IMG/VR virus record: IMGVR_UViG_3300013121_000035
Location: 1 to 40,202 of that record
DNA: 40,202 nucleotides
Strand: one strand, 5' to 3'
DNA from: a virus
Taxonomy: Duplodnaviria; Heunggongvirae; Uroviricota; Caudoviricetes
Under the pieces are notes generated by a model. The model did no database searches. It saw only the letters and a list, made by a program, of their open reading frames with translations, and was not told the origin of the DNA. Made by a program: the position numbers and the translations under genes. Below are positions 1,969 to 30,354 of this stretch, in pieces. Each line of letters opens with the position of its first letter. Position 1 is the first letter of the stretch.

Positions 1969-2184
1969 GTGGCTCAGCAGACCCCGCCGCCCAACGACCC
2001 CGACGACGACTACACCCTGACCTCCTCAGAGGTCGCCGGCATGTTCCGCGTCAGCCCCAAAACCGTGACCCGCTGGGCCAAGCTCGGCCTGCTGCCCTAC
2101 CGGCGCACCCTCGGCGGGCACCGCCGCTTCTCCGAACGCCGCGTCCGCGAGGAGCTCGACAAGCGGGGGAGCGCCACATGGTGA
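1969..2184 (+). CDS. bldC: BldC-family (MerR-like winged HTH) transcriptional regulator
   Basis: LTSSEVAGMFRVSPKTVTRWAKLGLLPYRRTLGGHRRF closely matches Streptomyces BldC (EVATMFRVDPKTVTRWAKAG...RTLGGHRRY); GTG 1969 with AAGGTGG RBS. Confidence 0.85.
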   Translation: MAQQTPPPNDPDDDYTLTSSEVAGMFRVSPKTVTRWAKLGLLPYRRTLGGHRRFSERRVREELDKRGSATW

Positions 2185-2453
2185 CCCTCGACGACCTCGA
2201 TGTGGCCGGCCCCGAAGCGCCCAGCGTCTTCACCGCGTTCAGCCAGGTCCTGGACGACACCCACCCTGCGCTGGTCACCCCACAGCTCGTCGCCGTCCTC
2301 CAACGCGCACTGGACGGCGTCGGCTACCGCCTGCCGCTGGACATCGTGCTGCGCAGCGTCCCCGCACGCGTGGCCGCCGAGCAGGCCATCAACCGGCTCC
2401 GCGCCCGCCTGGGCTACCAATTGTGGGCTGCTGGTGCCGACACCACCATGTGA
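2178..2453 (+). CDS. hypothetical protein
   Basis: ATG 2178 overlaps bldC stop; good codon bias. Confidence 0.6.
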   Translation: MVTLDDLDVAGPEAPSVFTAFSQVLDDTHPALVTPQLVAVLQRALDGVGYRLPLDIVLRSVPARVAAEQAINRLRARLGYQLWAAGADTTM

Positions 2454-2479
2454 GAACCGCACGCCGAGGAGGAGCTCGC

Positions 2480-2635
2480 ATGGCAGAACACGAGCGGCGT
2501 GGCCGTCGGCGTGACGCCGACCAGCCCGCCAACAGCATGAGCTACTGGGACCAGGTCGCCCGCGACCAGGCCGAGCGTGCCGCCCAGACGGCCGAGCGGA
2601 CCGCCGAGAAGGCCAAGCAGCCCACCGGCGAATAG
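2480..2635 (+). CDS. small hypothetical protein
   Basis: Strong RBS GAGGAGGAG; 51 aa charged helix. Confidence 0.6.
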   Translation: MAEHERRGRRRDADQPANSMSYWDQVARDQAERAAQTAERTAEKAKQPTGE

Positions 2636-2737
2636 CATCCCAGCAGCTCGCGGTGCGCAACTGGCACCACGCCGGATTCGACGCGCCTGCGACGTTCGTG
2701 TAGCGTCGCCGCCGGTCGTCGGTGCTCGGTGACCATC

Positions 2738-2774
2738 GACGCCCCGGTGCCTGGCCCCCCAGCGCCGGGGCGTC
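2738..2774. terminator. hairpin between convergent genes
   Basis: GACGCCCCGGTGC / GCGCCGGGGCGTC 13-bp stem with one G-U pair; no U tract. Confidence 0.55.
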
Positions 2775-2776
2775 AC

Positions 2777-3429: not shown

Positions 3430-3490
3430 ACGCACCTGCCGTCGTAGGCCGGCCGGGCATCGCACCAGCCGCACGGTTGCTCTCCAGGTG

Positions 3491-3514
3491 ATCTCGGCGC
3501 GTCCGCCATGCCAA
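3491..3514 (-). promoter_or_regulatory. putative sigma28/WhiG-like promoter TTGG-N12-GCCGAGAT
   Basis: Motif match in divergent intergenic region, upstream of the 3429 gene. Confidence 0.55.
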
Positions 3515-3538
3515 TTCGTCGGACTCCACCGCCGATGA
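3515..3538 (+). promoter_or_regulatory. putative sigma28/WhiG-like promoter TTCG-N12-GCCGATGA
   Basis: Motif match upstream of the 3597 gene. Confidence 0.6.
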
Positions 3539-3541
3539 CCA

Positions 3542-3561
3542 ACAACAACAGACAACAACAG
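3542..3561 (+). repeat. perfect 10-bp tandem repeat ACAACAACAG x2
   Basis: 3542-3551 and 3552-3561 identical, over the predicted transcription start. Confidence 0.8.
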
Positions 3562-3596
3562 AGCGCACCCGCTCGTCGACGATGAAAGGTGGAGAC

Positions 3597-3845
3597 ATGG
3601 CCGAACCCGACACCAACGGCGGCGAGCAGCAAGGGCTGGCCGCCCAGCTCGGCGACCGCCCCATCAGCGGCGTCTCACCATCCCCAGCCGTCGCACGCCC
3701 CGACCAGCCGGTCTTCCCCCCGCCGATCTTCGCGCCCATCGCCGAAGTCGTCGTGGACGAAAGCAAGGCCCCAGCACCCCAGGCGCCGGCCGACCAGCCA
3801 GCCGAGGAGCCACCCGCGCCAGTCCAAGCACGCCGCCGGCGCTGA
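3597..3845 (+). CDS. Pro/Ala-rich hypothetical protein
   Basis: RBS AAAGGTGGAG before ATG 3597. Confidence 0.6.
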   Translation: MAEPDTNGGEQQGLAAQLGDRPISGVSPSPAVARPDQPVFPPPIFAPIAEVVVDESKAPAPQAPADQPAEEPPAPVQARRRR

Positions 3846-3868
3846 ACCGCCCAGAGCGAGGAGGAACC

Positions 3869-4306
3869 ATGACCGACGCCAACATCACCGACAACGAGCC
3901 CACCAAGGGCGGCGACCCGATCCGTGCGCAGTTCGGCGACCTGGACGAGACCATCGAGCTCGTCCGGTTCGTCTTCAGCGACCCCGCCGCCGGCACCGGC
4001 TCCTACCAGAGCCGCGTCAACCACGCGCTCGTCGAGCGGTTCCCCGGCCACGCCGCCAACATCTTCGAGCTGTTCCAGGCCGTGGACAACAACGACGACG
4101 CCGCCAAGCGCCGCGCCGTCGCCCAGGTCGTCAACGCAATGGCCGACGACCCCAGCACCACCGGCGACGACAAGGAACACGACCGCAACTGGGGGCGGCT
4201 GGCCCGCCAGAACCCCTCCGCGGCGATCGCGCTGCTCGGCCTGGGCATCTCAGCGCGCATCAACCACGTCGAAGGCGTCAAGTGGGCGCCCGCTGACGAC
4301 ATCTGA
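3869..4306 (+). CDS. hypothetical protein
   Basis: RBS GAGGAGGA; strong codon bias; 145 aa; no family recognised. Confidence 0.75.
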   Translation: MTDANITDNEPTKGGDPIRAQFGDLDETIELVRFVFSDPAAGTGSYQSRVNHALVERFPGHAANIFELFQAVDNNDDAAKRRAVAQVVNAMADDPSTTGDDKEHDRNWGRLARQNPSAAIALLGLGISARINHVEGVKWAPADDI

Positions 4307-4396
4307 TCTTCGCGGCATCCGCCGCACCACCGCGGCCCTGCCGCACCCACCGCGGCCCCGTCTGCTCGGCGGGGCCGCTCGCATCTGCCTGAAGCG

Positions 4397-6013
4397 ATGA
4401 GCATCCGCCGCGCCCTGCCCCTGCCCCAACCCGGCGACGCCGCCCCGCTCGGCCCGGTCGTCGCCGCGGTCGTGCTGTGCCCACTGCTCGTCCTCGGCGC
4501 GTTCAGCCTGCCGCTCAACACCGCGCTCCAAGCCGCCCTGCCCTACCTGGTCGCGTTCGCCTGCGGCGGGGGCCTGCTGCTCGCCGCCTGCCTGCACTGG
4601 ATCGCGCGCACCATCGACGACGACCAGCTGGACTTCCTCGGCGTCGTCTACCTCCTGGCCGCCCTCGGGGTGCTGCTGCGCGGTGTCGTCCTGCCGCAAA
4701 CCAGCGCCATCGGCAACGCCACCATCATCGGCTCCACTGACGCGTCGGCGCTGCTGACCCTGCTGTGGCACGCGCTGATCCCCATCGGCGCCCTGCTCGT
4801 CCTCGGCCGCCACGCCGCCCGCTACGGCTGGGCGCCAACCCTCACCCTCGGGGTGTTCACCGGCGCGGTCATGATCGCCATGCTCCCCCTGGGCGGCCCC
4901 GACCTCGCCGACCCCAACGGCGTCAAGACCACCCTCGGGGTCACCCTGGCAGTCAGCGTCGGCGCCCTCAGCGCCCTCGCCGCCATCCTGTGGGTCCGCG
5001 CCGGCAACCGCCGCCCCTACGGTCCCGACCCGTGGATCGCCGCCAACCTCATCCTGGTCAGCGCCGGGGTCTTGCTGTGGGCCATCGCCGGCCCCCGCTA
5101 CAGCCCCCTGTGGTGGGCGTCGCAATGCTGCGACGCCCTGGCGTTCATCACCGCCGGCGCCGGCCAGCTCCAAGCCGTCGCCCGCTTCCAGACCGCGATG
5201 AACAACTACGTCGCCAGCCAGCAAGTCCTGCGCCGCGCCCAACCCCGGCCCAGCATCGAACTCAGCGACGCCAGCAGCCAGACCAGCCGCGACGCGATCG
5301 CCGCGCTGATCACCCACCCCGATCAGATCACCATGCTCGTCCAGCCCATCGTCGACCTCACCAGCGGCCGGGTCGCCGGCGCCGAAACCCTCGCCCGCTT
5401 CACCCCCGACCCCACCCAGCCGCCAACCGCCTGGTTCGACGCCGCCCACGCTGCCGGGCTGGCCAGCGACCTGGAACTGCTCTGCGCCCGCGCCGCCCTG
5501 ACCCACCTGGGCGCCCTACCCAACGACCTGTACCTGTCGATCAACCTCAGCCCCACCACCCTGGCCCAGATGCACTCCATCGCCGACACCTTCACCGTCA
5601 CCGGCCGCGACTGGCGCCGCATCGTCGTCGAAGTCACCGAACAGCAGCTCATCGACGACTTCGCCCACCTCGGCGACCTGTTCACCCCCGCCCGCGACCT
5701 CGGCGTCCGCCTGGCCATCGACGACCTCGGCAGCGGCCAAGCCGGCCTGCAGCACGTGCTGTACCTGCGACCCGAAGTCATCAAGATCGACCAGTCCATC
5801 GTCCAAGCGGTCGACACCGACCCCTACTGCCGCGCGCTGATCGCCAGCCTCGTCGCGTTCACCAGCGCGATCGGCGCCAGCCTCGTCGCCGAAGGTGTCG
5901 AGACCGCCGCGCAACACCGCACCCTGGTCAGCCTCGGCGTCAGCTACGGCCAAGGGTTCCGGCTCGGGCGCCCCATGCGCGTCGAAGACCTGCGCGTCCG
6001 CCTGCAACCCTGA
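4397..6013 (+). CDS. membrane-bound EAL-domain c-di-GMP phosphodiesterase (MASE4-like N-terminus)
   Basis: Multi-TM N-terminus (LLWHALIP, RYSPLWWASQ); QPIVDL, GAETLARF, SINLSP, EVTE, DDLGSG, IKID, AEGVET, GQGF: catalytic E/N/E/DD/K/E/Q retained. Confidence 0.92.
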   Translation: MSIRRALPLPQPGDAAPLGPVVAAVVLCPLLVLGAFSLPLNTALQAALPYLVAFACGGGLLLAACLHWIARTIDDDQLDFLGVVYLLAALGVLLRGVVLPQTSAIGNATIIGSTDASALLTLLWHALIPIGALLVLGRHAARYGWAPTLTLGVFTGAVMIAMLPLGGPDLADPNGVKTTLGVTLAVSVGALSALAAILWVRAGNRRPYGPDPWIAANLILVSAGVLLWAIAGPRYSPLWWASQCCDALAFITAGAGQLQAVARFQTAMNNYVASQQVLRRAQPRPSIELSDASSQTSRDAIAALITHPDQITMLVQPIVDLTSGRVAGAETLARFTPDPTQPPTAWFDAAHAAGLASDLELLCARAALTHLGALPNDLYLSINLSPTTLAQMHSIADTFTVTGRDWRRIVVEVTEQQLIDDFAHLGDLFTPARDLGVRLAIDDLGSGQAGLQHVLYLRPEVIKIDQSIVQAVDTDPYCRALIASLVAFTSAIGASLVAEGVETAAQHRTLVSLGVSYGQGFRLGRPMRVEDLRVRLQP

Positions 6014-6029
6014 CCGCCAAGGAGCCCAC

Positions 6030-6371
6030 ATGGCCTACATCGCGCTTGCGCTCATCCAAGTGCTCATCGCCGCCGCCTACGTCGTCATCGGCGTCAGCGT
6101 GCTACCCCGCGTGCGCTTTGGCGCCGTGGCCGCCATGCTCGCGCTCGGCTTCTTCCTGCTGTGCGCCGGCACCCACTTCGACCTCGCACGCCACACCGCC
6201 CAACGCAACGACCCCGACCTCATCGCCCCCCACATGTGGGCGTTGCACGTCAGCCAAGCCGTGATCGACTGGGCGTTCATCTTCGCGGTCCGCCGCTGGA
6301 AGATCGAGATCCGCCGCCGCCCCCCCGACGAGCGGCGCTGGCTGCGGTTCCTCGACGACGACCACGGCTAG
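6030..6371 (+). CDS. stand-alone 3-TM protein resembling the ETR1-type ethylene/copper-binding domain
   Basis: RBS AAGGAG; LIAAAYVVI, GFFLLCAGTH (CxxxH), ALHVSQAVI align with ETR1 FIAIAYFSI, AFIVLCGATH, TAKVLTAVV. Confidence 0.7.
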   Translation: MAYIALALIQVLIAAAYVVIGVSVLPRVRFGAVAAMLALGFFLLCAGTHFDLARHTAQRNDPDLIAPHMWALHVSQAVIDWAFIFAVRRWKIEIRRRPPDERRWLRFLDDDHG

Positions 6372-7381
6372 CTGACCTGCCATCCTGTCCGGCCGCGCTT
6401 GGCCGCGTACATCGCCCGGTCCGCCGCGGCCAGCAGCGCCGCTGGTGTGGCCCGCTGTGCCGAGGACAGCGCGACCCCCACACTCATCGACACCCGCACC
6501 TCCACCCCCGCCCGCACCGGCCGCTCCAACCGGGCCATCAACCGGCGAACCACCACCTGCGCGTGCTCCGGCGAGCTGTTCTCCAGCAGCATCGCGAACT
6601 CGTCGCCCCCCAGCCGCGCGGCCGAGTCCGATTCGCGCAACCCCACCCGCAACCGGCGGGCGACCTCCACCAGCACCCGGTCGCCGACCTGATGGCCGAA
6701 CGTGTCATTGATCCGCTTGAAGTCATCCACGTCGGCGTACAGCAACGCCACCGTCGCCCCGGTCCGCCGCGCGCGTGCCAGCGCGTGCTCCAGCCGGTCC
6801 TCGAACAGCGTGCGGGCCAGCAGCCCCGTCAACTGGTCAGTCAGCAGCGTCTCGTTGAACCGCCACGAGATCAGGTACGGCAAGTTGGTCAACCCCACGA
6901 ACGTCACCTGCGCGATCACCACGATCAGCGGCTGCTGCAACGCCCCATGCGCGTACAGCGTCGCCGGCGCGATGAGCGCCGCGCCGGCCAGGAACACCGC
7001 GTACGCGCCGATCGCCACCAGGCACGGCAGCCACGCCTGATACAACGTGACCATCCCGATCGTGGCGAAGAAGTGCAGATGCCACAGCCCACCACCACCG
7101 AGCACCACCAGCAGCGCGCTGGAGCCCACCAACGCCGTCGAGCCCAACGCCATCCGCGCCCGGCGTGACTGCGCCCAATTCGCGCCCGCCGCGAGCGCCG
7201 CCAGCGCCAACGCCTCAGCCACGCCCAGCCGTGCCCGCCCCGTCACCACCCCGACCGCGATCAGCAGGGCCACGTGCGCCCAGATCACCATCACGATCCC
7301 ACGGTGTCGTGCGAGCAGCGCGCTGGACGGCAACATCTGCCCGCGCGGCACAATCCTGCGCACGCGTGCCCGCCAAGACAC
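6368..7381 (-). CDS. membrane-bound diguanylate cyclase (GGDEF)
   Basis: RBS AGGAG; TM N-terminus; DQLTGL, DVDDFKRINDTFGHQVGD, I-site RESD, RLGGDEF (GGDEF at 6596-6610). Confidence 0.95.
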   Translation of the reverse strand: MSWRARVRRIVPRGQMLPSSALLARHRGIVMVIWAHVALLIAVGVVTGRARLGVAEALALAALAAGANWAQSRRARMALGSTALVGSSALLVVLGGGGLWHLHFFATIGMVTLYQAWLPCLVAIGAYAVFLAGAALIAPATLYAHGALQQPLIVVIAQVTFVGLTNLPYLISWRFNETLLTDQLTGLLARTLFEDRLEHALARARRTGATVALLYADVDDFKRINDTFGHQVGDRVLVEVARRLRVGLRESDSAARLGGDEFAMLLENSSPEHAQVVVRRLMARLERPVRAGVEVRVSMSVGVALSSAQRATPAALLAAADRAMYAAKRGRTGWQVS

Positions 7382-7480
7382 CGATCCGACTCCTCAACAG
7401 TGAGCTGGGAATACTATCGACCTGACACTTTTCGCATTCGATCGGCACAACGGCCACGCGGCACGGCGGGGGAGGGCGCA

Positions 7481-7594
7481 ATGCCAGCAGCGAAATGCCC
7501 ACCACACGCCAAACGGCTGCGTCGCACCGCACGCACCTGGGAATGCCCACGCTGCGGGGAGGTCCTCGCTACCCAGGAACAGCTGCGCATCTGA
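7481..7594 (+). CDS. small Zn-ribbon-like protein
   Basis: RBS GGAGGG; C-x2-H ... WECPRCG; 37 aa. Confidence 0.4.
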   Translation: MPAAKCPPHAKRLRRTARTWECPRCGEVLATQEQLRI

Positions 7595-7653
7595 CCCGCG
7601 CCAGCACTGGCAACGGCCGTTATCATTGCGCTCGGCGACTGGGGGGGAGCCGC

Positions 7654-7854
7654 ATGAACCGCACGCGCCTGCGCGACTACGACCCGCACGTCCACATCGA
7701 CCTGTCCTGCCCGCACTGCGGCGCCAGCGGTGAGCTGTGCGGCTACCTGTCCATCGTCGGGCGGGTCGTCGGCCACGTCAGGCGCATCCTGTGCGCTCAC
7801 CCCGAGGACCTCGACGTGCGCTGCCGATCCGACGAGCCGTTCAGCCTCAACTAA
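7654..7854 (+). CDS. small Cys-rich hypothetical protein
   Basis: GGGGGAG RBS; CPHCG motif. Confidence 0.5.
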   Translation: MNRTRLRDYDPHVHIDLSCPHCGASGELCGYLSIVGRVVGHVRRILCAHPEDLDVRCRSDEPFSLN

Positions 7855-7857
7855 CCA

Positions 7858-7881
7858 CTCGACAACCACCCCGGCCGAGCG
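7858..7881 (+). promoter_or_regulatory. putative sigma28/WhiG-like promoter CTCG-N12-GCCGAGCG
   Basis: Motif match, intergenic, upstream of lexA-like gene. Confidence 0.45.
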
Positions 7882-7914: not shown

Positions 7915-8196
7915 GTGATGGGAGCGACGATGCCAGCCGGGAGCCGCCAAGCCATGCTCGCGGCCGCCGCCGACCGGCGCGAGCAGATGCTCGACTACAT
8001 CGACACCTACCACCGCCACCACGGCTTCTCCCCATCCATCCCCGAGATCAGCCAGCACTTCAACATCTCCACCGGCGTCACCCGCCACCACCTGCTGCAC
8101 CTCGAACGCGAAGGACGGCTGCGCCGCACCCCCGGCGTCCACCGCTCCTTCCAAGTCATCCACACGCCTGGGGGGGCACATGCACCGCGACGATGA
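7915..8196 (+). CDS. LexA-type N-terminal DNA-binding domain protein without peptidase domain
   Basis: RREQMLDYIDTYHRHHGFSPSIPEISQHF...HHLLHLEREGRLRRTPGVHRSF follows LexA wHTH pattern; start may be 7918 or 7930. Confidence 0.75.
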   Translation: MMGATMPAGSRQAMLAAAADRREQMLDYIDTYHRHHGFSPSIPEISQHFNISTGVTRHHLLHLEREGRLRRTPGVHRSFQVIHTPGGAHAPRR

Positions 8197-11055: not shown

Positions 11056-11462
11056 ACGCCCTCATCGAACCGGCCGTAGCGATCGCCCTGCTCGCCTGCG
11101 TCGTCGGTGCGCTGTGCGCCGCGTTCATCCTCCACGTCGCCATCCTCCACAACCACCCCCCCTCGCCGCTGGCAACGGCCGTCAGCAGAGTCGCGCGCAC
11201 CGTCGCCCGCCAGGTCGCCGGCGACACCAGCGAGATCCCCGTCGCCGAGGCCGACACCATCGAACAGCCCTCGGTCAAAGGCGAGCTCGTCGCCGACACC
11301 GAAGGGCGCTGGTTCACCATCCACGAAGCCGACCTGCGCCACGCGCTGGCTGCTACGTTCGAGGAGCACCTGCATCCCGACAACGCGCTGCGCCAACTCA
11401 CCAAGCACGCCCTCATCCACCACCAGCGCCCCGCCAAGCGCCGGAAAGGAGGCACCCGATGA
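11052..11462 (+). CDS. hypothetical membrane-anchored protein
   Basis: N-terminal hydrophobic helix; overlaps neighbours by 4 nt. Confidence 0.6.
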   Translation: MNALIEPAVAIALLACVVGALCAAFILHVAILHNHPPSPLATAVSRVARTVARQVAGDTSEIPVAEADTIEQPSVKGELVADTEGRWFTIHEADLRHALAATFEEHLHPDNALRQLTKHALIHHQRPAKRRKGGTR

Positions 11463-14056
11463 GCGTCACCGTCACCCTGGAGGAGGAGGAGCTGTACCTC
11501 GCCGCCCTCTTGGACGACCCCAGCGGCCTGGACCTCGCCGAGTTCTGCTGGCTGGACGAAGAAGCCGACGACGGGTGCTTTCGCGCCTGGGACTACCAGT
11601 GGGCCTGGTGGCGCAACGACGACCCCTACCAGATCGACCAGGCCGGCCGGTCACTGGGCAAGAGCGTGGGCATTACCATGCGCGCGTTCGCCTTCCCCTT
11701 CAAAGCGCCCGGCCAGGAGATGCTCGTCACCGCGCCGGAGCTCAACCACCTGCGCCCCCTCACCGACCAGATCGAACACCGGCTCACCACCACCCGCCTC
11801 ACTCGCGAGCTGCTCCCCGCCGTCAAAGGCATGGGCATCGCCAGGCAGCCGCACTTCCAGGTCCGTTTCACGAACAATGCTCGCATCATTACCAGACTTC
11901 CCAATAAGGACGGTAAGGGAGTCAAGGGGTCGATGGCCGCCGGGGCCATCGTGCTCACTCGGAACGGCCTGAAACCGATTGAGGATGTCGTACCTGGTGA
12001 CGAGGTTCTCACCCACATGAACCGCTGGCGGCGGGTACTGGACAACATCCGCTCCGACGCTGATGTCGACCTCATCGACGTCGCTGGCGGCGGCAACCGC
12101 AGCCTAGTCATGTCCTGGAACCACCGGATGTTCGGTCGACGCAACCGCAACCCGCAGCGCACCCGGCGGCTTTCGCCGATCAACTGGGTCATTGCCGACG
12201 ACCCAGAACTGGGCGACCGCTGGTACTTCGGCTCGCCGACCACCTTCCCCAGCGAGCCGCTGCCAGCAACGCCCGTCGCCGACATCGAGGCGCTGCTTGC
12301 ACTCGCTGGCGCCTATGTCGCCGACGGCAACCAGGGCGTCAACCGGATCGCGCTCACCGACGACGTCGATGAGGTACCACGTCTGCTTGCCCTCGCTGAA
12401 GCGGTGGGTTGCACCGCGCACGCCTACGACAAGGCCGTGGGTTCCCGGGCGCGCACAGTCGAGATCTACGGCAAGGCTGTCGCCAACTGGTTGTTGGAGC
12501 ACTTCGGCCAGTACGCCGCGGGTAAGCGGCTGCCGGTCTGGCTGCTCGGTGCGGAGGAGCGCTACCGCAAGGCGTTCTTATACACCTATCTCGCAGGGGA
12601 CGGTCACTGGAGTCCAGTCAAGCGGCGCTGGGAACTGTCGACCGCCTCCAAGCCACTCGCCGTTGGTCTCCGCCTGCTCGGCCAGAGCCTCGGTTACCAG
12701 GGCAGTCTCTCGTGGACTGACCCGAAGCCCAACCAGGTGAGCCCCGCACCGCAACGTTCCTGGCGCGTACAACTCACCGATCACGGCCACGCCCAACTGC
12801 TCGATGGCATCTTGTGGACTAAGGTCCGTGCAGCCACCGAGAGCGGTCGCGGTGTGGTCTACAGCATGGTTGTTGAAGGTGACGAGTCCTACATCGCGGA
12901 CGGACTGATCAGCCATAACCAACACCCCATTCATCTCGAAATGGACGAAGCCCAGGACTACCCTCTCGCTGGCTGGGTGGAGCTGATCGAAACGCTCAAG
13001 CGCGGCAGCAAAGGGTTCACGTGGCGCTGCCACGGCGTCTCCCGCGGGGTGCGCGACAAGTTCTACGAGCTCACCCAGGAATCCTCCGGGTGGACCGTCC
13101 ACCGGCTCACCGCCGTGCACCGGCCGACCTGGGACGACGCGGAGCGCCAAGCCAAGATCCGCGAGTACGGCGGCAGTCGCGACAACCCCGACTACAAGCG
13201 CAACATCTTCGGCGAGCACGGTGATGCGACCAACCCGCTGTTCGTTCTTGCCCGCCTGATGGCGATCGTGCGCCAGGACGCCGAGTACAACGACGACATC
13301 TACGCCTGCCGCAAGATCAGCTACGAGCTGGTCGCCAACGCCGGCACCCCCATCCAGACGTTCCTGGACCTGCCCGGCAGCCATCTCGCCGGCTACAGCG
13401 GCTACTACGGCGGGATGGACGTCGGGTTCACCGCCGACCCCTCCGAGATCCTGGTGTTCGGCGAGCAGGTGAAGACCGGCAAGCTGCGGCTGCTGACCCG
13501 CATCCAGCTCGCCCGCGTCCACGCCGCCGACCAGCGGCGCGTCATCACCGCCCTGTTCGACTTCTACGGCGCCAAGCTGCGCCGGTTCGCGATGGACAAG
13601 ACCGGGCTGGGCCTGCCGATCTGGCAGGACATGCTCACCGAGCCGATCAGCGGCGCCAACGACCGGGTCATCGGCTACAACTTCTCCGGCCTGTATCCCG
13701 TCGAGGTCGAAGACCGCCCGCTGAAACCCGGCGAGAAGCCCGCGGACCTGGTCATCAAGAAGAACATCAAGGACTGGTCGTCTGACCAGCTGCGCCACTG
13801 GGTTGACCAGCGTGTCCTGGAGCTCCCGTTCGACCGGGAGCTGCTCAGCGAATGGCAGGGGCAGAGCTACTCGGTCGCCCCGCAGGCCGGCAACCCGTAT
13901 GGGCGGCGCAGCTACTCCGCCGGCTCCTACCACACCCTGGACGCGGGACGGATGTTCGCCGCCGCCAAGGGCTTGGAAGCGATCGAGGCGATGCTCGCCA
14001 AGCCGGTGGCCACCGAAGGCCCCGTCCTGGACGTGTTCGTCGGCGCCGGGTACTGA
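11459..14056 (+). CDS. terL: terminase large subunit, intein-containing
   Basis: RBS AAAGGAGG; Walker A QAGRSLGKS, Walker B IHLEMDE, nuclease motifs GGMDVG, MDKTGLG, HTLDA; 865 aa, 535 aa without intein. Confidence 0.92.
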   Translation: MSVTVTLEEEELYLAALLDDPSGLDLAEFCWLDEEADDGCFRAWDYQWAWWRNDDPYQIDQAGRSLGKSVGITMRAFAFPFKAPGQEMLVTAPELNHLRPLTDQIEHRLTTTRLTRELLPAVKGMGIARQPHFQVRFTNNARIITRLPNKDGKGVKGSMAAGAIVLTRNGLKPIEDVVPGDEVLTHMNRWRRVLDNIRSDADVDLIDVAGGGNRSLVMSWNHRMFGRRNRNPQRTRRLSPINWVIADDPELGDRWYFGSPTTFPSEPLPATPVADIEALLALAGAYVADGNQGVNRIALTDDVDEVPRLLALAEAVGCTAHAYDKAVGSRARTVEIYGKAVANWLLEHFGQYAAGKRLPVWLLGAEERYRKAFLYTYLAGDGHWSPVKRRWELSTASKPLAVGLRLLGQSLGYQGSLSWTDPKPNQVSPAPQRSWRVQLTDHGHAQLLDGILWTKVRAATESGRGVVYSMVVEGDESYIADGLISHNQHPIHLEMDEAQDYPLAGWVELIETLKRGSKGFTWRCHGVSRGVRDKFYELTQESSGWTVHRLTAVHRPTWDDAERQAKIREYGGSRDNPDYKRNIFGEHGDATNPLFVLARLMAIVRQDAEYNDDIYACRKISYELVANAGTPIQTFLDLPGSHLAGYSGYYGGMDVGFTADPSEILVFGEQVKTGKLRLLTRIQLARVHAADQRRVITALFDFYGAKLRRFAMDKTGLGLPIWQDMLTEPISGANDRVIGYNFSGLYPVEVEDRPLKPGEKPADLVIKKNIKDWSSDQLRHWVDQRVLELPFDRELLSEWQGQSYSVAPQAGNPYGRRSYSAGSYHTLDAGRMFAAAKGLEAIEAMLAKPVATEGPVLDVFVGAGY
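11930..12919 (+). mobile_element. intein with LAGLIDADG homing endonuclease (330 aa)
   Basis: SMAAGAIVLTRNGLKPIEDVVPGDEVLTH, block B SWNH, AGAYVADG, YLAGDG, VYSMVVEGDESYIADGLISHN; codon usage differs from flanks. Confidence 0.92.
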
Positions 14057-18016: not shown

Positions 18017-18040
18017 TTCACCCTCGCGCCTGGCCGACAG
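18017..18040 (+). promoter_or_regulatory. putative sigma28/WhiG-like promoter TTCA-N12-GCCGACAG
   Basis: Motif match in the 58-nt gap before 18075. Confidence 0.6.
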
Positions 18041-18074: not shown

Positions 18075-18419
18075 GTGCCCAAGCCAGCCACGCTCAACTT
18101 GGAGCTCTACCAGGGCGACTACTTCGAGCTGGCCGTCACGCTCTACGAGGTCGACGGGACCACCCCCAGGAACCTGACGGGCATGACGCCACGCGCCCAG
18201 GTTCGCACCACCGCGGAGGACTCCACCGTCCTGTTGGAGTTCGATATCACCATCGACGACGACCCCACCACCGGCCAGCTCACCCTCAGCGCCGCGTCCG
18301 CGCAGACCGCGCTGCTGCCCAAGAAGGCCGTGTGGGACTTCCAGCTCACCGACGCCGGCGACCGCACCCGCACCTACCTGCGCGGCAGTGTGGTGGCCAC
18401 CCGCGAGGTCACCCGCTGA
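18075..18419 (+). CDS. virion structural adaptor (LtfC/BppU-N-like), paralogue 1
   Basis: [25 protein letters not shown]; paralogous to 25502-25867. Confidence 0.7.
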
Positions 18420-19453
18420 TGGCCGACCCTGACGTCGTCGTCAACGTCACCCAAGCTGGTGACAACGTGCTGTCGGCCGTCGCCGACGGTGACGTTGTCA
18501 TCCTCGTTGAGGAGGTCAGCGCCGGCCCGCCAGGGGCGCAAGGTGACCCGGGACCACCCGGGGAGCAGGGCGAACCTGGCCCGCCCGGCGAGCCTGGGGA
18601 GCAGGGCGAACCCGGTCCGCCTGGTGAGCCCGGCGAGCCCGGTGAGCCCGGCGCCCCCGGCGACAAGGGCGACAAGGGCGATCAGGGTGACCCTGGTCCG
18701 CAAGGCGACCCTGGTCCGCAAGGTGATCCCGGCCCAGAAGGCACGTTCTCGATGGTCAGCCTCGACGCCGACTTCGACGTCGACGCCGCACCCGCCGCCG
18801 ACTACGAGCTGCGACCCGAGATCGACTACGCGAGCGCCACCACCGCCGACGTCGGCTACGCGCTCAACCTCGCCAAGAAGAACATCAGCGCGGTGGTCGA
18901 CGTGCTGCACCGCGCGGTCAACGCCGCGCAAGGCCCCCAAGGTGACCCGGGGCCTCCTGGCGCGGCGGTCGACCCTGACGACTACATCTACGCCTGGCGC
19001 GAGGCCCCCTACACCCTGAGCGTCGTCGGCCAGACCTACCCGATGACCTGGGACACCGTCAACGACGACTACCTGGGCGCCTCCTTCGACGTCCCCGGCG
19101 TCGGCGACGGCTCCATCGTCGTGCGCGTCATCCAGCCAGGCTGGTTCGTCGTCGCCGGCCTGGTCAAGTTCGCCGCGACCAACAGCGACGACGACCAGGT
19201 CGGCGGCACCCGCGAGATCCTCATCTCCGGCAGCGGCGTGAGCGGCTGGAACGCCATCACCGTCCTGCCGAGCTCCCAGAGTCCCGTGCTCAGTGCCCAG
19301 GTCATCACCGAGGTCACCCAGGCAGACATCGACGCGTGGGATTCCAACAACCCCACGGCCGGCGCCAGTGTCGTACAGGTCAACGCCCGGCAGGTTACCG
19401 GCGGACCCCTGGACGTCATCAGCGCCGAGGTCATGGTCAAGAGGCTGACATGA
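18419..19453 (+). CDS. collagen-like fibre protein with C-terminal beta-sandwich head
   Basis: 24 uninterrupted Gly-X-Y triplets at 18524-18742 plus a short second run. Confidence 0.8.
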
Positions 19454-20145
19454 GCACCGACGAGTACCTCCACCGCAGCGTCGACCCCGAGACCGGCGAC
19501 GAGCAGGTCACCTGGACCGAGGTCGCCTCCGGCCCCCAAGGCGACCCCGGCCCCCAAGGCGACCCCGGCCCCCAAGGCGACCCCGGCCCGCCGGGGTCGG
19601 ATGCCACCAGCGCGTGGGTGCCACTGGGGGAGATCCTGCTGACCAGCAACGCCCAGCACACCGACTGGATCACCATCGACCCAGGCGGTGGCGGCACCGA
19701 CACCTACGAGGAGTTCCTGGTCTTTTGCGACTACACCGTCGGCTCCGGTGATCGCATGATGCTGCAGTTCAACGGGGACGTCGGCCAGAACTACTACGTG
19801 CGGTTCTTGTCCTCAGTCGCCGGCAGCGGCGGCAGCAGCACCACCCAGATCGGCCCCGAGTCCGGCATCCACCTGGCGCCCTGGTTCATCGCGCTGCGCC
19901 AGTCGTGCCTGCTGCACATCTCCAACACCAGCTTGCGGCAGAAGAAGGTCGCGTTCCTGGCGTGCAACCAGGAAACCGCGACCGACGCCACCTTCCCGAC
20001 GCTGGTCACCGCCGGCGAAGGCCACTGGCCCAATGCCAGCCGCATCTACCAGATGCGCCTGCAGACGTTCAACAACCAGTACGCGACCGCGCCGATCCGC
20101 ATCGTCGTCTCCGGCCGCAGCCGGATCAGCCGCACCGCCCCATGA
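19450..20145 (+). CDS. short collagen-like fibre/receptor-binding protein
   Basis: GPQGDP x3 then beta-rich domain. Confidence 0.7.
19531..19584 (+). repeat. perfect 18-bp tandem repeat GGCCCCCAAGGCGACCCC x3
   Basis: Three identical copies encoding GPQGDP. Confidence 0.9.
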
Positions 20146-24026: not shown

Positions 24027-24170
24027 TCACGGATCGTCGCGTTGGATCTCGACGTCTCGCGGCGCGGTGATCCCCACTCGGACCTGCCCGCCGCGCACCT
24101 CCAGCACGGTCACGACCACATCCGGCCCGATCGTCAGGCTCTCGCCGACCCGGCGGGTGAGGACAAGCAC
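24027..24170 (-). CDS. csrA: CsrA/RsmA RNA-binding translational regulator, 47 aa (not in ORF track)
   Basis: RBS GGGAGG, GTG; [47 protein letters not shown] aligns without gaps to E. coli CsrA 1-47 including R44. Confidence 0.9.
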
Positions 24171-24183
24171 GGCAACCTCCCTG

Positions 24184-24573
24184 CTAGGACGGTGTCGTGG
24201 GCTCCACCGCGGTCGTCTCCGGGTGCGCGTGGCGGATCGCCCACAGCTCCGGCGGCGGGGGAGTGTGCAGCGAGCCGACCGGCTCGCCGCGCTGCGCGTA
24301 GCCGACCCACGCCAGCAGCAGCTGCTTGGTGAGCCGGTTCACCCGCAGATCCGGCAGGACCCGATGGTGGCGGGTGGCGTTGATCAGCCGGTGGGTCTCC
24401 GAATGGGTCGTCGGGCACACCAGCACCGTGTTCTCCCGCACATCCGGCCCGCCCATCCCCAACGGCCACACATGGTGGAACTCCACCAGATGCACCGGCG
24501 GCGCGTGGTTGGTCACACACGCGCACCGTGCCAGCGGGTGCACCAACGCCCAACGACTAGTCATACCCCACAT
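24184..24573 (-). CDS. HNH endonuclease
   Basis: CACVTNH...[31 protein letters not shown]; start 24573 or 24564. Confidence 0.75.
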
Positions 24574-24595
24574 ATCGGTCGCGGCGTCGACTGCA

Positions 24596-24619
24596 TTCAG
24601 TCCTCGCGGCTGCCGAGGG
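24596..24619 (+). promoter_or_regulatory. putative sigma28/WhiG-like promoter TTCA-N12-GCCGAGGG
   Basis: Motif match upstream of 24661. Confidence 0.6.
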
Positions 24620-24660: not shown

Positions 24661-25164
24661 ATGGAACGGATGCCACTGGAAGTGTGGGAGACCGCCACTG
24701 ACAGCACCGTGTTCGTGGCACGCACCGACCAGTTCGGCCGCGAAACCCTCCAAGGCGTCGGTGGGCGCGTCGGCGCCAAGCTGCAGATCACCGTCGAAGA
24801 CCGCGAGTACAACCAGCAGAAAGCCGCCGACCCCTCCCTGGACCCGTTCCTCAACGGGCTGCTCAGCCCCGTCAAGGTCCACGGCGCCCCCGAGCAGATC
24901 GCCAGCCCCAACGCGCTGTCGCGCGCGGAGATGGTCGCCGTTTTTGCCAAGACCGGCCGCGCGTTCCACGCCGCGCTGGACCGCATCACCAGCGAAGTCA
25001 CCCTGCGGACCCTGCGCCGCGTCGCCAGCGAAGTCGACGCCAAGCAATCCCAGATCGCCGAGCTCGACCGCCGCCTGGAACCGTTCACCGTCGTCGGCAA
25101 GCAGCAGAGCGTCTACAAGGAACTGCAACCCGAAGGGCCACGCCCGCACGCCACCGTCGAATAG
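24661..25164 (+). CDS. hypothetical protein
   Basis: RBS TAGGAG; 167 aa; strong codon bias. Confidence 0.75.
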   Translation: MERMPLEVWETATDSTVFVARTDQFGRETLQGVGGRVGAKLQITVEDREYNQQKAADPSLDPFLNGLLSPVKVHGAPEQIASPNALSRAEMVAVFAKTGRAFHAALDRITSEVTLRTLRRVASEVDAKQSQIAELDRRLEPFTVVGKQQSVYKELQPEGPRPHATVE

Positions 25165-25182
25165 CCCAAGGAGGAGGGTGTC

Positions 25183-25407: not shown

Positions 25408-25438
25408 GCTTCGCGCCACACCGCTGCTCCCGGTCGAT

Positions 25439-25461
25439 TTCGACCCTCCCGCCGCCGACCT
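25439..25461 (+). promoter_or_regulatory. putative promoter TTCG-N11-GCCGACCT
   Basis: Near match, spacer 1 nt shorter, upstream of 25502. Confidence 0.45.
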
Positions 25462-25501: not shown

Positions 25502-25867
25502 GTGGCAGCACCACCTGTGAGCAGCGACCTGGAAATCATGCAGGGCGCTGACCTGTCGTTGCTGGTCACCTACACCGACGACGACGGTGAGCCGTTCGAC
25601 CTGACCGGCTGGACCGCGCGGATGCAGGTGCGCGGCAGCTACAACGACACCAGCGCCGCGATCGACATCTCCACCACCCCCAACGACCAGGGCCGCATCG
25701 ACATCGACCTGCCCACCGGCACCCTGGCCGTGGCGATCGTCGCGGCCGCGACCGCGACCGTCACCCGCGAACGCAACGTGTGGGACCTGTTCGTCTACGG
25801 CCCCGCCGGCCAGGTCGAAACGCTGGTTCGCGGTGAGGCCACGCTGCTGCGGCGGGTGACCCGATGA
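25502..25867 (+). CDS. virion structural adaptor (LtfC/BppU-N-like), paralogue 2
   Basis: IMQGAD, DLTGWTARMQVR, VWD, RRVTR. Confidence 0.7.
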   Translation: MAAPPVSSDLEIMQGADLSLLVTYTDDDGEPFDLTGWTARMQVRGSYNDTSAAIDISTTPNDQGRIDIDLPTGTLAVAIVAAATATVTRERNVWDLFVYGPAGQVETLVRGEATLLRRVTR

Positions 25868-26160: not shown

Positions 26161-26170
26161 AGGAGGCGAT

Positions 26171-27373: not shown

Positions 27374-29841
27374 GCCGCAAGTTCCTGTCCGTCCTCGAAG
27401 CGCCCGGCTACCCCGGCGTCGCCCAAGACGTCCTCGCGCAGTCCTACCACCACCACAACGACAACCTGGTCTACAACTCCAGCTTCGAGATCCCCGACCC
27501 CGCTGATGTCACCAAACCGCACGGGTGGAAGTGCTACAGCGTCGCCGGGCCGATCACCTGGGGCTTGCAGACCACCGCCGCCAACCTTCGCTCAGGGTTC
27601 CGCTCGGCCTACATGACCATCGGTGACGGCACCGGGTCGCTGCGGATCTCCAGCGAAGGCGCCAAGTTCCCCGTCGCCACCGGCGAGCAGCTGTGGGCAT
27701 CCGTCTGGTACCAGACCTCCAGCTCCTTCACCGGCAACGCCGTGCTGCCAAGCGTGCTGTGGTGGGACAGCGTCGGGGCTTTCCTGTCTTCTAATGGTCT
27801 TGGCAGCTACAGCGCGAGCACCACCGGCGCCCGCGCCGCCGCGCTCGTCACCCCACCCGCAGGCGCGGTCAACGCGTCCATTCAGGTGCAGTTCCACGGC
27901 CCCGACATCTCCGGCGGCAGCCCCACCTACCCGCTCACCATCTACATCGACGACGCCATCCTGGTCCGCGCGGACGGGCCGACCAGCTACGCGACGGCGC
28001 GCACCCTCGGCACCGGGTCCACCCAGGCCGCCGCCGGTGACCACGGTCACAGTCAGCTGGTCGCCCCGCTGCTGGTGGTCAACAACGGTGCCATCAGCGT
28101 CGTCCCCGTCGCCGTCAAGGGTGTCTCCGGGCAGACCGGGGACCTCCAACAGTGGCAGGACTCCACCGGCGCGGTCCGAGCCCGCATCAGCAACCTCGGC
28201 TCCCTCGCCGTCACCAACGGCACCAGCGACACGGCCAGCATCGACGGGTCGGTGGGCTACTTCCGCGGCGCTGGCATCACCAAGGCTGACAACACCGGCG
28301 GGTATGTGACCCTGGACGGGGCAGGTGCCGCCGGCCACGGTGTGGTCGTGCGCGGTCGCACGACCAACCAGACCACGCTCGTGGTTCGTCCCGTGGCCGC
28401 CCAGAGCGCGGACCTGCAGCAGTGGGTGAACGACACTGCCGGGTCGGTTCTGGCCAAGGTGACCAAGGACGGCATCGCGGATGTCGCTGGCCTGCTGATC
28501 GGCGGCCAGGCCCTGCTCGGCCAGGCCGCCACGCAAGCGGCGCCCGGCAACCACCCCCACAACTTCGACGACAACCTCGTCATGAACGGCGGGTTCGAGG
28601 TTGCCAGCCCCACCGACGCGACCAAGCCGTTCGCGTGGATCGGGACTGTCGGCGCCGGCTCACCCACCTGGGGCCTGAACACCGCCGCCGCGAACCTGCT
28701 CAGTGGCACCAAGTCCTGTTACATCACTATCACCGCCGGCACCGACCACCTGAAGATCACCAGCGACTCAGCCAAGTTCCCCTGCACCACCGGGGAGATT
28801 CTGTGGGCGCAGCTGCGCGTGAAGACCTCCGCGGTCTACACCGGCAACGGCGTGCGCAGCTACATCGACTGGGAAGACGCCAGCGGCGCGTACCTGTCGT
28901 CCACGGTCATTGGGCAGATCCCCGGTGACACCAACTGGGGGCAGATGCAGGCGCTGGTCACCCCGCCCGCCAACGCCACCCAGGGCAGCTTCATGGTCCA
29001 GCACTACGGGCCGAACATCACCGGCAGCCCGACCTATCCGCTGACGCTGTACATCGACGCGTGCACCGTCACTCGTGCGATCACCGACCAGCGGGTCGCT
29101 GCCGCGAACAAGGACGGCGTCGCCGGCACCGCGTCCATGCGCACCATCGGGACCGGCGCGACTCAGGCCGCCGCCGGGAACCACACGCACACCGCGGCTG
29201 CGGGCTCGATGAACTTCGATTCAGCGCAGGAGACCACCTACCAGGTCCAGCAGGAATTCGACGTTGCGACCAGCTTCGGCAGCCCCGCCAACGGGATGGG
29301 CACCGGCTGGACCTCGGTCGGGTCGCTCGCCAGCGCGTACCGCGAAACGTCCGTTGGCCAGTTCGAGAACGGCTCCGCGCAGTCAACGACCGCGATTCTC
29401 GGCTACATCTACACACTCACCACCAGCCAGGACTTCGCCGCCTACTTGAAGATCCCCCGCTACGGCCCCGCCGCCGCCGGGCTGTGCTACGGGGTGCTGG
29501 TCCGCGACTCCACCAAGTACTACGCGTTCGTCTACGACGACGCCGACCAGACCATCAAGGTCAAATACTTCACCAACGCCACCACCTTCTCCACCAACAA
29601 GTTCACGTCCGCGGCGCTGACGATCAGCCGCCCGGACATGTTCAAGATCACCCGCGCGACCAGCGTGTGGACCTGCTGGGTCGGGATCGAAGGCATGTGG
29701 GTGAAGGTCTGCGACGCCCAGACGTTCAGCGACCTCAACAACAGCCCCGGCTCGATCGGGTTCGGGTTCACCTTCCAGTCGGGCACCAACCTGGTCGCCA
29801 ACGCCCACCGGGTCGGCTGCGACTACGTGCGGGTGATGTGA
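27370..29841 (+). CDS. fibre/receptor-binding protein with two carbohydrate-binding-like repeats
   Basis: Internal repeats NLVxNxxFE...GSPTYPLTxYID; three TQAAxGxHxH motifs; beta-rich C-terminus. Confidence 0.75.
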   Translation: MSRKFLSVLEAPGYPGVAQDVLAQSYHHHNDNLVYNSSFEIPDPADVTKPHGWKCYSVAGPITWGLQTTAANLRSGFRSAYMTIGDGTGSLRISSEGAKFPVATGEQLWASVWYQTSSSFTGNAVLPSVLWWDSVGAFLSSNGLGSYSASTTGARAAALVTPPAGAVNASIQVQFHGPDISGGSPTYPLTIYIDDAILVRADGPTSYATARTLGTGSTQAAAGDHGHSQLVAPLLVVNNGAISVVPVAVKGVSGQTGDLQQWQDSTGAVRARISNLGSLAVTNGTSDTASIDGSVGYFRGAGITKADNTGGYVTLDGAGAAGHGVVVRGRTTNQTTLVVRPVAAQSADLQQWVNDTAGSVLAKVTKDGIADVAGLLIGGQALLGQAATQAAPGNHPHNFDDNLVMNGGFEVASPTDATKPFAWIGTVGAGSPTWGLNTAAANLLSGTKSCYITITAGTDHLKITSDSAKFPCTTGEILWAQLRVKTSAVYTGNGVRSYIDWEDASGAYLSSTVIGQIPGDTNWGQMQALVTPPANATQGSFMVQHYGPNITGSPTYPLTLYIDACTVTRAITDQRVAAANKDGVAGTASMRTIGTGATQAAAGNHTHTAAAGSMNFDSAQETTYQVQQEFDVATSFGSPANGMGTGWTSVGSLASAYRETSVGQFENGSAQSTTAILGYIYTLTTSQDFAAYLKIPRYGPAAAGLCYGVLVRDSTKYYAFVYDDADQTIKVKYFTNATTFSTNKFTSAALTISRPDMFKITRATSVWTCWVGIEGMWVKVCDAQTFSDLNNSPGSIGFGFTFQSGTNLVANAHRVGCDYVRVM

Positions 29842-30329
29842 TGAACGAAAGCACCGTCCAGCTCGAAGCCTACAAAGCAGACGTCAACAAGCACGGCGGG
29901 TTCTGCGTCAACAAGGCGGCCAACGACCAGACCGGCATCGTCGCCAACACCTGGACCCAGGTCACCTGGTCCCAGGAGGAGTTCGACACCAACGGCAGCT
30001 TCGACCTGCCCAACAACCGGATGCTGGTCCCCACCGGCCAGGGCGGCTTGTGGCTGGTCGGCGCCCACGGCTATGTCGCCGGCCAGCCAACCTCGGGCAC
30101 CTGGGACGCCAACATGGCCCTGTACAAGAACGGGTCCATCTACCACCGGCTCGCCCTGCCCAACTTCAACATCAACAGCTCCGAGGGCCTGGGCGGCAGC
30201 GTCTTGCTCAACACCGTCGCCGGTGACTACTACGAGCTGTACATCCACATGAACCCCGTCAACAGCTCCGGCACCCTGCGCGGCAACACCGACTGGACCT
30301 ACTTCTGGGGCGTGCGGCTTGGGCCGTGA
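29841..30329 (+). CDS. C1q/TNF-like domain protein
   Basis: WTQVTWSQEEFDTNGSFD, GLWLV, LYKNG, AGDYYELY. Confidence 0.65.
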   Translation: MNESTVQLEAYKADVNKHGGFCVNKAANDQTGIVANTWTQVTWSQEEFDTNGSFDLPNNRMLVPTGQGGLWLVGAHGYVAGQPTSGTWDANMALYKNGSIYHRLALPNFNINSSEGLGGSVLLNTVAGDYYELYIHMNPVNSSGTLRGNTDWTYFWGVRLGP

Positions 30330-30330
30330 G

Positions 30331-30354
30331 TTGAGCCGCGCCGCCTGCCGATAG
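30331..30354 (+). promoter_or_regulatory. putative sigma28/WhiG-like promoter TTGA-N12-GCCGATAG
   Basis: Best match to sigma28 -10 GCCGATAA; 7 nt before a GTG lacking an RBS. Confidence 0.65.

Follow-up and report, generated by a model that had tools for sequence, protein, structure and literature searches.

The stretch of DNA analysed here (the window) comprises the first 40,202 nucleotides (nt) of a linear 104,202-nt virus record of IMG/VR (IMGVR_UViG_3300013121_000035). Set among the terminase (with an intein), portal, capsid, tail and tape-measure genes of a phage, it carries enzymes of cyclic di-GMP (c-di-GMP) turnover, small regulator-like proteins and a spaced motif that recurs upstream of genes. 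Genes were called by codon-position bias; the G+C content is about 69%, there are 0 tRNA genes, and genes are oriented on the plus strand up to about 68 kilobases (kb) of the record and on the minus strand beyond. An original prediction, made from the letters of the window, had seen in these features one combined system by which the phage would adjust host c-di-GMP and so gate its own sigma-28/WhiG-type promoters. The analysis points elsewhere: the motif appears to belong to a whole phage family whose better-assembled members encode a sigma factor of their own, and the signalling genes look like separate insertions in one member of that family. The genes and elements concerned are the following (aa, amino acids; HTH, helix-turn-helix; ORF, open reading frame; TM, transmembrane).

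1969-2184, plus strand: BldC-family small MerR-type HTH protein, 71 aa, in a run of small plus-strand genes.
3597-4306, plus strand: two small ORFs (82 and 145 aa) of unassigned function, between the motif site at 3514 and the EAL gene.
4307-4396, plus strand: intergenic region of predicted RNA structure, including an 11-bp G+C hairpin immediately 5' of the EAL start.
4397-6013, plus strand: membrane-anchored EAL-domain protein, 538 aa (Pfam EAL, PF00563, 153.8 bits, cut-off 31.3).
6030-6371, plus strand: stand-alone 3-TM module, 113 aa, with conserved Cys45-x3-His49, His55, His68 and His73.
6368-7381, minus strand: membrane-anchored GGDEF protein, 337 aa, with a hydrophobic N-terminus (Pfam GGDEF, PF00990, 154.2 bits).
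7411-7416, minus strand: TAGTAT, the sole −10-like hexamer 5' of the GGDEF gene, from a sequence reading of 7271-7660.
7930-8196, plus strand: LexA-type winged-helix DNA-binding protein, 88 aa (Pfam LexA_DNA_bind, 38.5 bits).
24027-24170, minus strand: minimal CsrA, 47 aa (Pfam CsrA, PF02599, 65.4 bits, cut-off 27).
24183-24561, minus strand: HNH endonuclease gene directly 5' of CsrA (Pfam HNH, 18.9 bits, below the 21.4 cut-off).

As first written, YTSR-N12-GCCGA, the motif is close to chance, with 12 matches against 6.28 ± 2.31 expected and 2 of 100 shuffles reaching 12; GCCGA alone is not enriched upstream of genes either (33 against 42 expected). What stands of the claim is a bipartite element that adds one base to that pattern. 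When the 66 upstream regions of the record were scanned without bias for all spaced dyads, ATT-N14-GCCGA came out first, with 6 occurrences where 0.15 were expected (p 1.4e-8; of 30 dinucleotide shuffles, the best gave 1.4e-7), and it is conserved in related phages; it is best written (A/G)TT-N14-GCCGA. The spacing is sharp, since N14 gives six matches on the plus strand and two on the minus strand while other spacers of 6-23 give 0-2 in this genome. All eight motif sites are intergenic, each upstream of a gene on the same strand. The sites and their predicted −10 boxes are distributed as follows.

3514-3535, plus strand, and 3515-3494, minus strand: back-to-back pair around a shared AATT, pointing toward 3597 and toward the minus-strand genes 3471-2786.
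7857-7878, plus strand: variant ACT-N14-GCCGA, upstream of the LexA-type gene.
14251-14272, plus strand: GCCGATCA, then 7 nt, then ATG at 14283.
18016-18037, plus strand: upstream of gene 18075-18419.
24595-24616, plus strand: upstream of gene 24661-25164.
25437-25458, plus strand: upstream of gene 25517-25867.
30330-30351, plus strand: variant GTT-N14-GCCGATAG, then 7 nt, then GTG at 30362.
3535, 14272, 18037, 24616, 25458 and 30351: GCCGANNN boxes, the predicted −10 elements.

The bases that follow GCCGA vary in this phage. At four sites, 6-7 nt separate the 8-nt −10 box from the start codon; at 14251 and 30330, where the box is GCCGATNN, the distance is exactly 7 nt, a geometry that would suit a leaderless transcript. 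The pair at 3494-3535 reads TCGGC-N14-AATT-N14-GCCGA and looks like a divergent promoter pair.

GCCGA is the core of the −10 box of sigma-28 (FliA/SigD/WhiG) promoters, for which the general consensus is TAAA...GCCGATAA (PMC8325347); in Actinomycetota, WhiG2 promoters read T(A/C)AA-N16-GCCGATAA and WhiG1 promoters CTCA-N16-17-GCCGAACT (bioRxiv 10.64898/2026.01.14.699351). This −10 core, the fixed spacing and the coding-strand bias together support a reading of the motif as a promoter-like element of the sigma-28 (FliA/WhiG) kind. The upstream half does not follow the host patterns: T(A/C)AA-N16-GCCGA and CTCA-N16/17-GCCGA match in this genome only inside coding sequence, and 15-17 nt before GCCGA the intergenic sites show neither TAAA, T(A/C)AA nor CTCA, reading instead TnnA and then a conserved TT. 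A −35 region of this distinct kind would separate the phage promoters from the host regulon. The predicted sigma-28/WhiG-type promoters are upheld in their −10 core, and by the sigma factors of relatives described below, and are not upheld in their −35 region. A scan of the window for the sigma-70 consensus gave no sites. Another candidate motif, CTG(G)CCGA, was set aside as mostly coding for Leu-Ala-Asp/Glu.

Relatives of the phage were collected by scanning IMG/VR with the C-terminal part of the terminase, which yielded 55 loci at 42-61% protein identity. The backbone is widely shared among them: a small-terminase-like gene is found at 49 loci, the portal gene at 50, the capsid gene at 33 and the gene for the LexA-type DNA-binding domain (DBD) at 13. 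Across 44 non-redundant loci, 20 copies of ATT-N14-GCCGA lie on the gene strand and a single copy on the opposite one, compared with 2-9 and 1-10 copies, respectively, for other spacings; three of the 20 gene-strand copies are the same conserved site within the terminase coding sequence, and about 12 are clearly intergenic. Counts of CCGAAC in the relatives were discarded as a measure, these matches being mostly coding. LexA-DBD orthologues in relatives carry ATTT[CG]-N12-[GA]CCGAAC upstream, in the same place as the 7857 site, and the motif also stands upstream of orthologues of gene 30362 in two further loci (L037 and L050) and in G001, the closest long relative. G001 has four GTTC-N13-GCCGA sites before genes, one of them before its 30362 orthologue, with 7 nt to the ATG.

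The signalling genes, by comparison, do not travel with the motif. This phage's copies of the EAL, GGDEF, 3-TM, BldC-like, CsrA and HNH genes have no counterpart in the terminase flanks of any of the 55 relatives, and 16 long relative records (1.3 Mb in total) contain no EAL, GGDEF, CsrA or BldC-family match at all. The expected co-occurrence of cassette and motif among related phages is not seen, the motif being kept and the cassette absent, and a functional link between the cassette and the promoters loses its footing when relatives, including G001 at its 30362 orthologue, retain the motif with no cargo gene whatever.

What half of the long relative records do carry is a sigma factor. Sigma70_r2 scores above the Pfam cut-off in 7 of 15 long relative records, including both of those that are at least 90% complete, and a scan with an alignment of these sigmas added an eighth, G016, bringing the count to 8 of 16 long records. 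Three of the relatives' sigmas were scored: they reach 226-230 bits with the NCBIfam model FliA_WhiG, against a cut-off of 189.6, and the single model that fits them best is WhiG, whose equivalog cut-off of 343 bits lies above their scores of 253-274 bits. The −10 box of the relatives, GCCGAAC(A), agrees with the WhiG1 consensus of Actinoplanes at 7 of 8 positions. On these scores, the family possesses a sigma-28-type factor of its own, together with a promoter class to match it. The original prediction had relied on a host sigma factor and had named a phage sigma encoded elsewhere as an outcome that would speak against it; a sigma-28-like gene is what half of the long relatives (8/16) encode, the better-assembled ones among them, and the host WhiG patterns lie only in coding sequence. 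The sigma-bearing relatives (G001, G003, G004, G007, G009, G011, G013 and G016; loci L060-L063 and L087-L096) are uncultured phages with a G+C content of 51-68%, and their sigmas are 250-270 aa long.

The position of the sigma gene varies within the family. In G003 and G007 the LexA-DBD and terminase genes come 4-6 kb downstream of it; in G001 and G016 it stands at the end of the plus-strand arm, after the HNH orthologue of 62906-63214 and ahead of the minus-strand arm; in other relatives it is found about 13 kb upstream of the terminase or elsewhere.

The c-di-GMP cassette consists of an EAL gene, a gene for a 3-TM module and a GGDEF gene that converges on them, the stop codons overlapping at 6368-6371. 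The two ORFs at 3597-4306, which precede it, were called by codon bias in agreement with independent gene calls on a second assembly (the Logan contig described below) and belong to no Pfam family. The intergenic region that follows them, 4307-4396, has a predicted RNA fold of −53.4 kcal/mol (z −5.05), a stability reached by none of 200 shuffles, and its hairpin is possibly a terminator or an attenuator; because no Rfam family matched in the window, no known c-di-GMP riboswitch is present there. In the EAL protein, a hydrophobic N-terminal part of about 290 aa belonging to no known family is followed by an EAL domain that, aligned to TBD1265 (2r6o) and PA3825, keeps all catalytic and metal residues: the E of EAL(x)R, with the signature here being ETLAR, the N, the E of E(L/V)TE, the DD, the K of KID, the E of EGVE and the Q of GQG. 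The closest cellular EAL domains, bearing actinobacterial names, are 45-51% identical, and a search of species genomes for a donor of the protein gave one distant match only. The GGDEF protein, aligned to 3icl and TpbB, keeps the GGDEF site and the Mg/GTP residues DxD..FKxIND, and has an RxxD I-site five residues before GGDEF (RESD-SAARL-GGDEF). Such allosteric I-sites occur in many GGDEF cyclases and are not required. As the catalytic signatures are intact by comparison with solved structures, both enzymes look catalytically competent, and c-di-GMP phosphodiesterase and cyclase activities are predicted. The GGDEF start (GTG 7381) is preceded by a GAGGAG ribosome site, and no ATT-N14-GCCGA site was found 5' of the gene in a minus-strand reading of 7271-7660, which suggests that it uses a promoter class other than that of the EAL side.

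The small protein encoded between the two enzymes had been called ETR1-like, a description that is sustained in its architecture, with three TM helices and a Cys-x3-His in the second, and unsupported by any family match or significant structural similarity. It belongs to no Pfam or NCBIfam family, the best weak match being HupE_UreJ at 16.9 bits; the ESM Atlas offered no informative family; and Foldseek against the Swiss-Prot models gave nothing significant, rice ethylene receptor 4 (44-158) ranking 14th with E 3.5 and a TM-score of 0.37. An exhaustive HMMER search gathered 36 homologous clusters, in which the module either stands alone or forms the N-terminal part of a larger protein; the fusion partners include HisKA-HATPase kinases, PAS-SpoIIE phosphatases, a PAS-GAF-GGDEF-HD protein and a GAF-PAS-kinase, and fusion to GAF-PAS-kinase resembles the architecture of ETR1. 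In the family alignment Y17, P26, F41, T48, H49, H68, Q76 and F83 are invariant and C45, H55, H73 and W81 nearly so, and an AlphaFold (AF2) model with a pLDDT (predicted local distance difference test) of 90.4 has three long helices (2-27, 32-59 and 67-90). Comparison by hhalign of the 3-TM family with the membrane parts of the EAL and GGDEF proteins indicated no relation. The protein is a stand-alone copy of a membrane input module and a candidate sensor of a metal or a small ligand.

The remaining domains on which the original prediction was built are, like EAL and GGDEF, confirmed by Pfam or NCBIfam models, with BldC falling marginally short of its threshold. The BldC-like protein scores 41.7 bits with both Pfam MerR and HTH_17, 76.4 bits with NCBIfam NF033787 HTH_BldC (cut-off 77, E 1.1e-21) and 26.8 bits with an excisionase model; it is a MerR-type HTH alone, spanning residues 46-90 of a longer reading of the gene, and has no effector domain. 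The minimal CsrA reaches 72.5 bits with NCBIfam NF002469 against a cut-off of 73. Of the residues for RNA contact, it retains LTRR of strand 1, near the N-terminus, and the conserved Arg44; it ends three residues past that arginine and lacks the C-terminal helix, the model being matched only to position 45 of 53; its identity to CsrA proteins of 60-83 aa, several of them named Acidimicrobiia or Actinomycetota, is 70-82%. The gene is provided with a GGAGG site, a GTG at 24170, a stop at 24027 and a strong hairpin downstream. HNH and CsrA make up an antisense insertion of two genes, equipped with its own ribosome sites and a terminator hairpin, that separates the major capsid gene from gene 24661; the arrangement looks like a cargo gene borne by a homing endonuclease. 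The LexA-DBD protein has no peptidase domain: TIGR00498 is matched at positions 6-70 of 203 only, with 34.8 bits against a cut-off of 110.95. Its orthologues lie upstream of the terminase genes in 13 relatives' loci, and by this conservation the gene is assigned to the backbone of the phage family and not to the cargo. The single combined system that had been proposed is difficult to reconcile with this layout, in which the BldC-like gene, the EAL/GGDEF pair and HNH-CsrA occupy three separate places and look independently inserted.

The phage itself, and the state of its record, bear on the weighing that follows. Outside the window, the record carries these genes.

59317-59625 of the record: WhiB gene (83.7 bits).
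64041-65105 of the record: amidase_2 endolysin (lysis).
66491-67153 of the record: papain-like cysteine peptidase.
70629-72065 of the record: large serine recombinase (integrase).

The serine recombinase and the WhiB gene identify a predicted temperate phage of an Actinomycetota host, an assignment with which the names on the EAL and CsrA homologues agree. Its habitat is activated sludge: metagenomes of different studies, one of them aquatic and several from activated sludge, contain sequence of the cassette region. Four runs of separate studies yielded short contigs that are near-identical to the window and cover the cassette; the contig junctions in those runs all have a short side of 20-26 letters and so do not count as evidence for variants that lack the cassette. 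No RNA dataset is among the sequencing runs that match the cassette region. An independent Logan contig (L059) is 98.8% identical over 8.7 kb, has an identical gene order across the cassette and extends 1583 nt to the left of window position 1. Because this extension matches nothing in the record, the other end included, the record is not closed and is cut at both ends. The added segment (L059:1-1583) has two small ORFs and a gene for a protein of 110 aa that combines a Cys-rich N-terminus with a LuxR/GerE-type HTH. Further extension was unproductive: an exact-protein look-up of the window's EAL protein gave no match, the leftmost complete gene of the Logan contig is present on that contig alone and a metagenome scan with it returned distant matches only, and a viral scan with a right-end protein of the record returned one distant match. 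Within the window, the large terminase gene (11459-14056) contains a Hint-type intein-like insert at about 11930-12922, ending ...SHN followed by Q, on either side of which the terminases of relatives align. Two adjoining genes at 18419-20145 with collagen-like Gly-X-Y repeats (GDPGPQ, GEPGPP) probably encode fibre or decoration proteins.

Family promoters of sigma-28 type combined with three separate cargo insertions acting on the host is the reading we favour, and we place it somewhat on the probable side of even. Under this reading, (A/G)TT-N14-GCCGA would be the promoter class of the whole phage family, with a sigma-28 −10 core and its own −35 region, which the phage-encoded FliA/WhiG-family sigma of the better-assembled relatives is available to read. 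In the present phage a like sigma most likely reads the motif and is probably encoded in sequence that the record does not include. The BldC-like gene in the left operon of small genes, the EAL/3-TM/GGDEF cassette and HNH-CsrA in the head module would be three lineage-specific insertions aimed at the host, the EAL and GGDEF enzymes lowering or raising host c-di-GMP and the BldC-like and CsrA proteins interfering with host developmental transcription and mRNA translation. The EAL side would lie downstream of a family-type promoter (3514), with a strong hairpin between. As the promoter classes differ and the genes overlap convergently, cyclase and phosphodiesterase might be expressed at different stages, for example the cyclase in the lysogen and the phosphodiesterase with the late genes, a suggestion that we offer tentatively.

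Several observations weigh against this reading. The 104,202-nt record contains no sigma-70-family gene detectable with the Pfam r2, r4 and r4_2 models or by tblastn with four relatives' sigmas, and tblastn with the same four sigmas found none in the 1.6-kb Logan extension. The slot that the sigma gene occupies in G003 and G007 is taken in this phage by the BldC-like gene and the c-di-GMP cassette, and the slot used in G001 and G016 by the amidase, the cysteine peptidase and small unknown genes. CheckV gives the record a completeness of 100%. Co-transcription of the EAL gene from 3514 is uncertain because of the stable hairpin in between, and the presumed effects of the cargo on the host are drawn from what is known of the protein families. 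With both ends of the record cut off, a sigma gene may still lie outside it.

The same missing sigma is what keeps the original prediction alive. It holds that the phage has no sigma of its own, that host WhiG/FliA reads the motif and that EAL and GGDEF set the release or hold of the sigma by an RsiG-type anti-sigma factor, timing the virion genes; this would imply that the lineage lost the family sigma and came to free or lock the host sigma through its own c-di-GMP enzymes. We consider both the prediction and the loss that it implies unlikely. The prediction draws on the failure to find a sigma gene in either the record or its extension, on the occupation of both syntenic sigma slots by other genes and on the complementary distribution in the records examined, where relatives have a sigma without the cassette and this phage the cassette without a sigma. 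The GCCGA −10 core is, moreover, common to WhiG and FliA promoters, and the switch formed by RsiG, two molecules of c-di-GMP and sigma WhiG is established in Actinomycetota, namely in Streptomyces venezuelae and Rubrobacter radiotolerans (PMC7005675, PMC8325347). Set against these points, the sigma could lie beyond the cut ends; no motif site fits a published host consensus, all strict matches being coding; measured from TTCA as the −35 element, the gap is 3-4 nt smaller than that of host promoters; and relatives use the motif with their own sigma and without a c-di-GMP gene. The retention of the motif without the cassette and the sigmas of the relatives are both results that count against the prediction, which survives them because no sigma gene was found in this phage. 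If the gene is truly absent, the model becomes directly testable, and, if true, it would describe a phage that times its virion genes via a second-messenger/anti-sigma switch of its host.

A different doubt concerns the cargo, which might consist of passengers, host genes captured recently and now decaying with no role in the life of the phage. Its absence from all relatives, the shortening of CsrA to 47 aa and the presence next to it of an HNH gene suggestive of selfish mobility would all fit. The long ORFs, however, are intact with all catalytic residues kept, the codon bias of the cargo matches that of the phage (G+C at third codon positions, 0.91-0.93), and the cassette is maintained in the 98.8%-identical strain and in several metagenomes; the capture of the EAL gene, for its part, does not look recent, because the nearest cellular EAL domains are only 45-51% identical. 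Decaying passengers are in our view distinctly unlikely.

We regard as very unlikely, likewise, that the motif is an operator bound upstream of several operons by a DNA-binding protein of the phage such as the LexA-DBD protein. The gene is conserved in the family and in many relatives has the motif upstream of itself, but the motif is asymmetric and bipartite, with fixed spacing and a 20:1 preference for the coding strand, lies 6-7 nt from the start codon at four sites, and has as its 3' half the −10 core of sigma-28 promoters in a family that encodes sigma-28-type factors. That the cassette region is host DNA brought next to phage DNA through misassembly or misplaced provirus boundaries, for which the slightly higher G+C content of 1-6 kb (0.70-0.72) than of the rest of the window and the typically cellular nature of EAL and GGDEF genes might be invoked, is scarcely credible given the same order in an independent assembly, phage-type small genes on both sides, family-type promoter sites at 3514 and 7857, backbone LexA-DBD and terminase genes directly after the cassette and an integrase 65 kb away, within the record.

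Development in Actinomycetota is controlled by c-di-GMP, BldC and WhiG. On the favoured reading, a widespread family of uncultured phages (55 contigs) appears to run its virion genes through sigma-28-type promoters and a FliA/WhiG-family sigma of its own, an example of the takeover of an alternative host sigma lineage by phages. One member of the family, found in activated-sludge and aquatic metagenomes, has amassed an unusual load of host-signalling genes, comprising a phosphodiesterase, a cyclase, a Cys/His module, a BldC-like protein and a minimal CsrA. Such a phage would be a natural tool for studying how viruses steer dormancy, biofilm or filament formation in the actinobacteria of sludge.

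Phage sigmas with cognate promoters are known from Bacillus phage SPO1 (gp28 and gp33/34) and from Bacillus phages with sporulation-type sigmas. Like these phages, the present family carries an alternative sigma and a matching motif before virion-gene operons; unlike them, its sigma is of the FliA/WhiG clade, and the gene was not found in the focal record. With the RsiG-WhiG system, the phage shares the combination of a GCCGA-core promoter class and c-di-GMP enzymes in one genetic unit, and the 3514 site upstream of the EAL operon recalls Rubrobacter, where five WhiG-type promoters precede diguanylate cyclase and phosphodiesterase genes. Here, however, the unit is a phage whose relatives use the promoters without a c-di-GMP gene, no RsiG, WhiG, PilZ or FlgM gene was found in the record (the PilZ and FlgM models gave no match) and the −35 differs from T(A/C)AA-N16. 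In comparison with the WhiG1/FliA promoters of Actinoplanes missouriensis, the −10 of the relatives is close to the WhiG1 box and the family's sigmas pass the FliA_WhiG model, whereas the upstream element is ATT 14 nt before GCCGA and not CTCA at 16-17 nt, and the sigma is phage-borne in the relatives.

The tally over 50,697 GenBank phage records is 64 with EAL, 100 with GGDEF, 83 with CsrA, 6 with a similar sigma and 1 with a BldC-like protein; no actinophage is among the organisms and hosts tallied for those records, none of the six sigmas comes from an actinophage isolate, and a literature search on phage-encoded GGDEF/EAL or BldC in actinophages found nothing specific. Virus-borne c-di-GMP genes have been described in a Mu-like virus with a diguanylate cyclase (PMC7785012) and in sargassum viruses with mucR and yhjH (PMC11295528). 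Those viruses and the present phage have in common c-di-GMP turnover genes that are presumed to alter host biofilm or motility; the phage differs from them in its separate, convergent and membrane-anchored EAL and GGDEF proteins, in the third, sensor-like module and in being an actinophage. CsrA/Rsm homologues are likewise carried by Pseudomonas and Vibrio phages and plasmids (PMC7366521). The CsrA of the window resembles those of the Pseudomonas and Vibrio phages (GenBank 'carbon storage regulator') as phage cargo with 61-63% identity, and differs in its 47 aa without the C-terminal helix, its actinobacterial nearest relatives, its pairing with HNH and its antisense position in the head module. 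Signalling cargo and phage sigmas with their own promoters are thus known principles, and their combination in one actinophage is new as an example.

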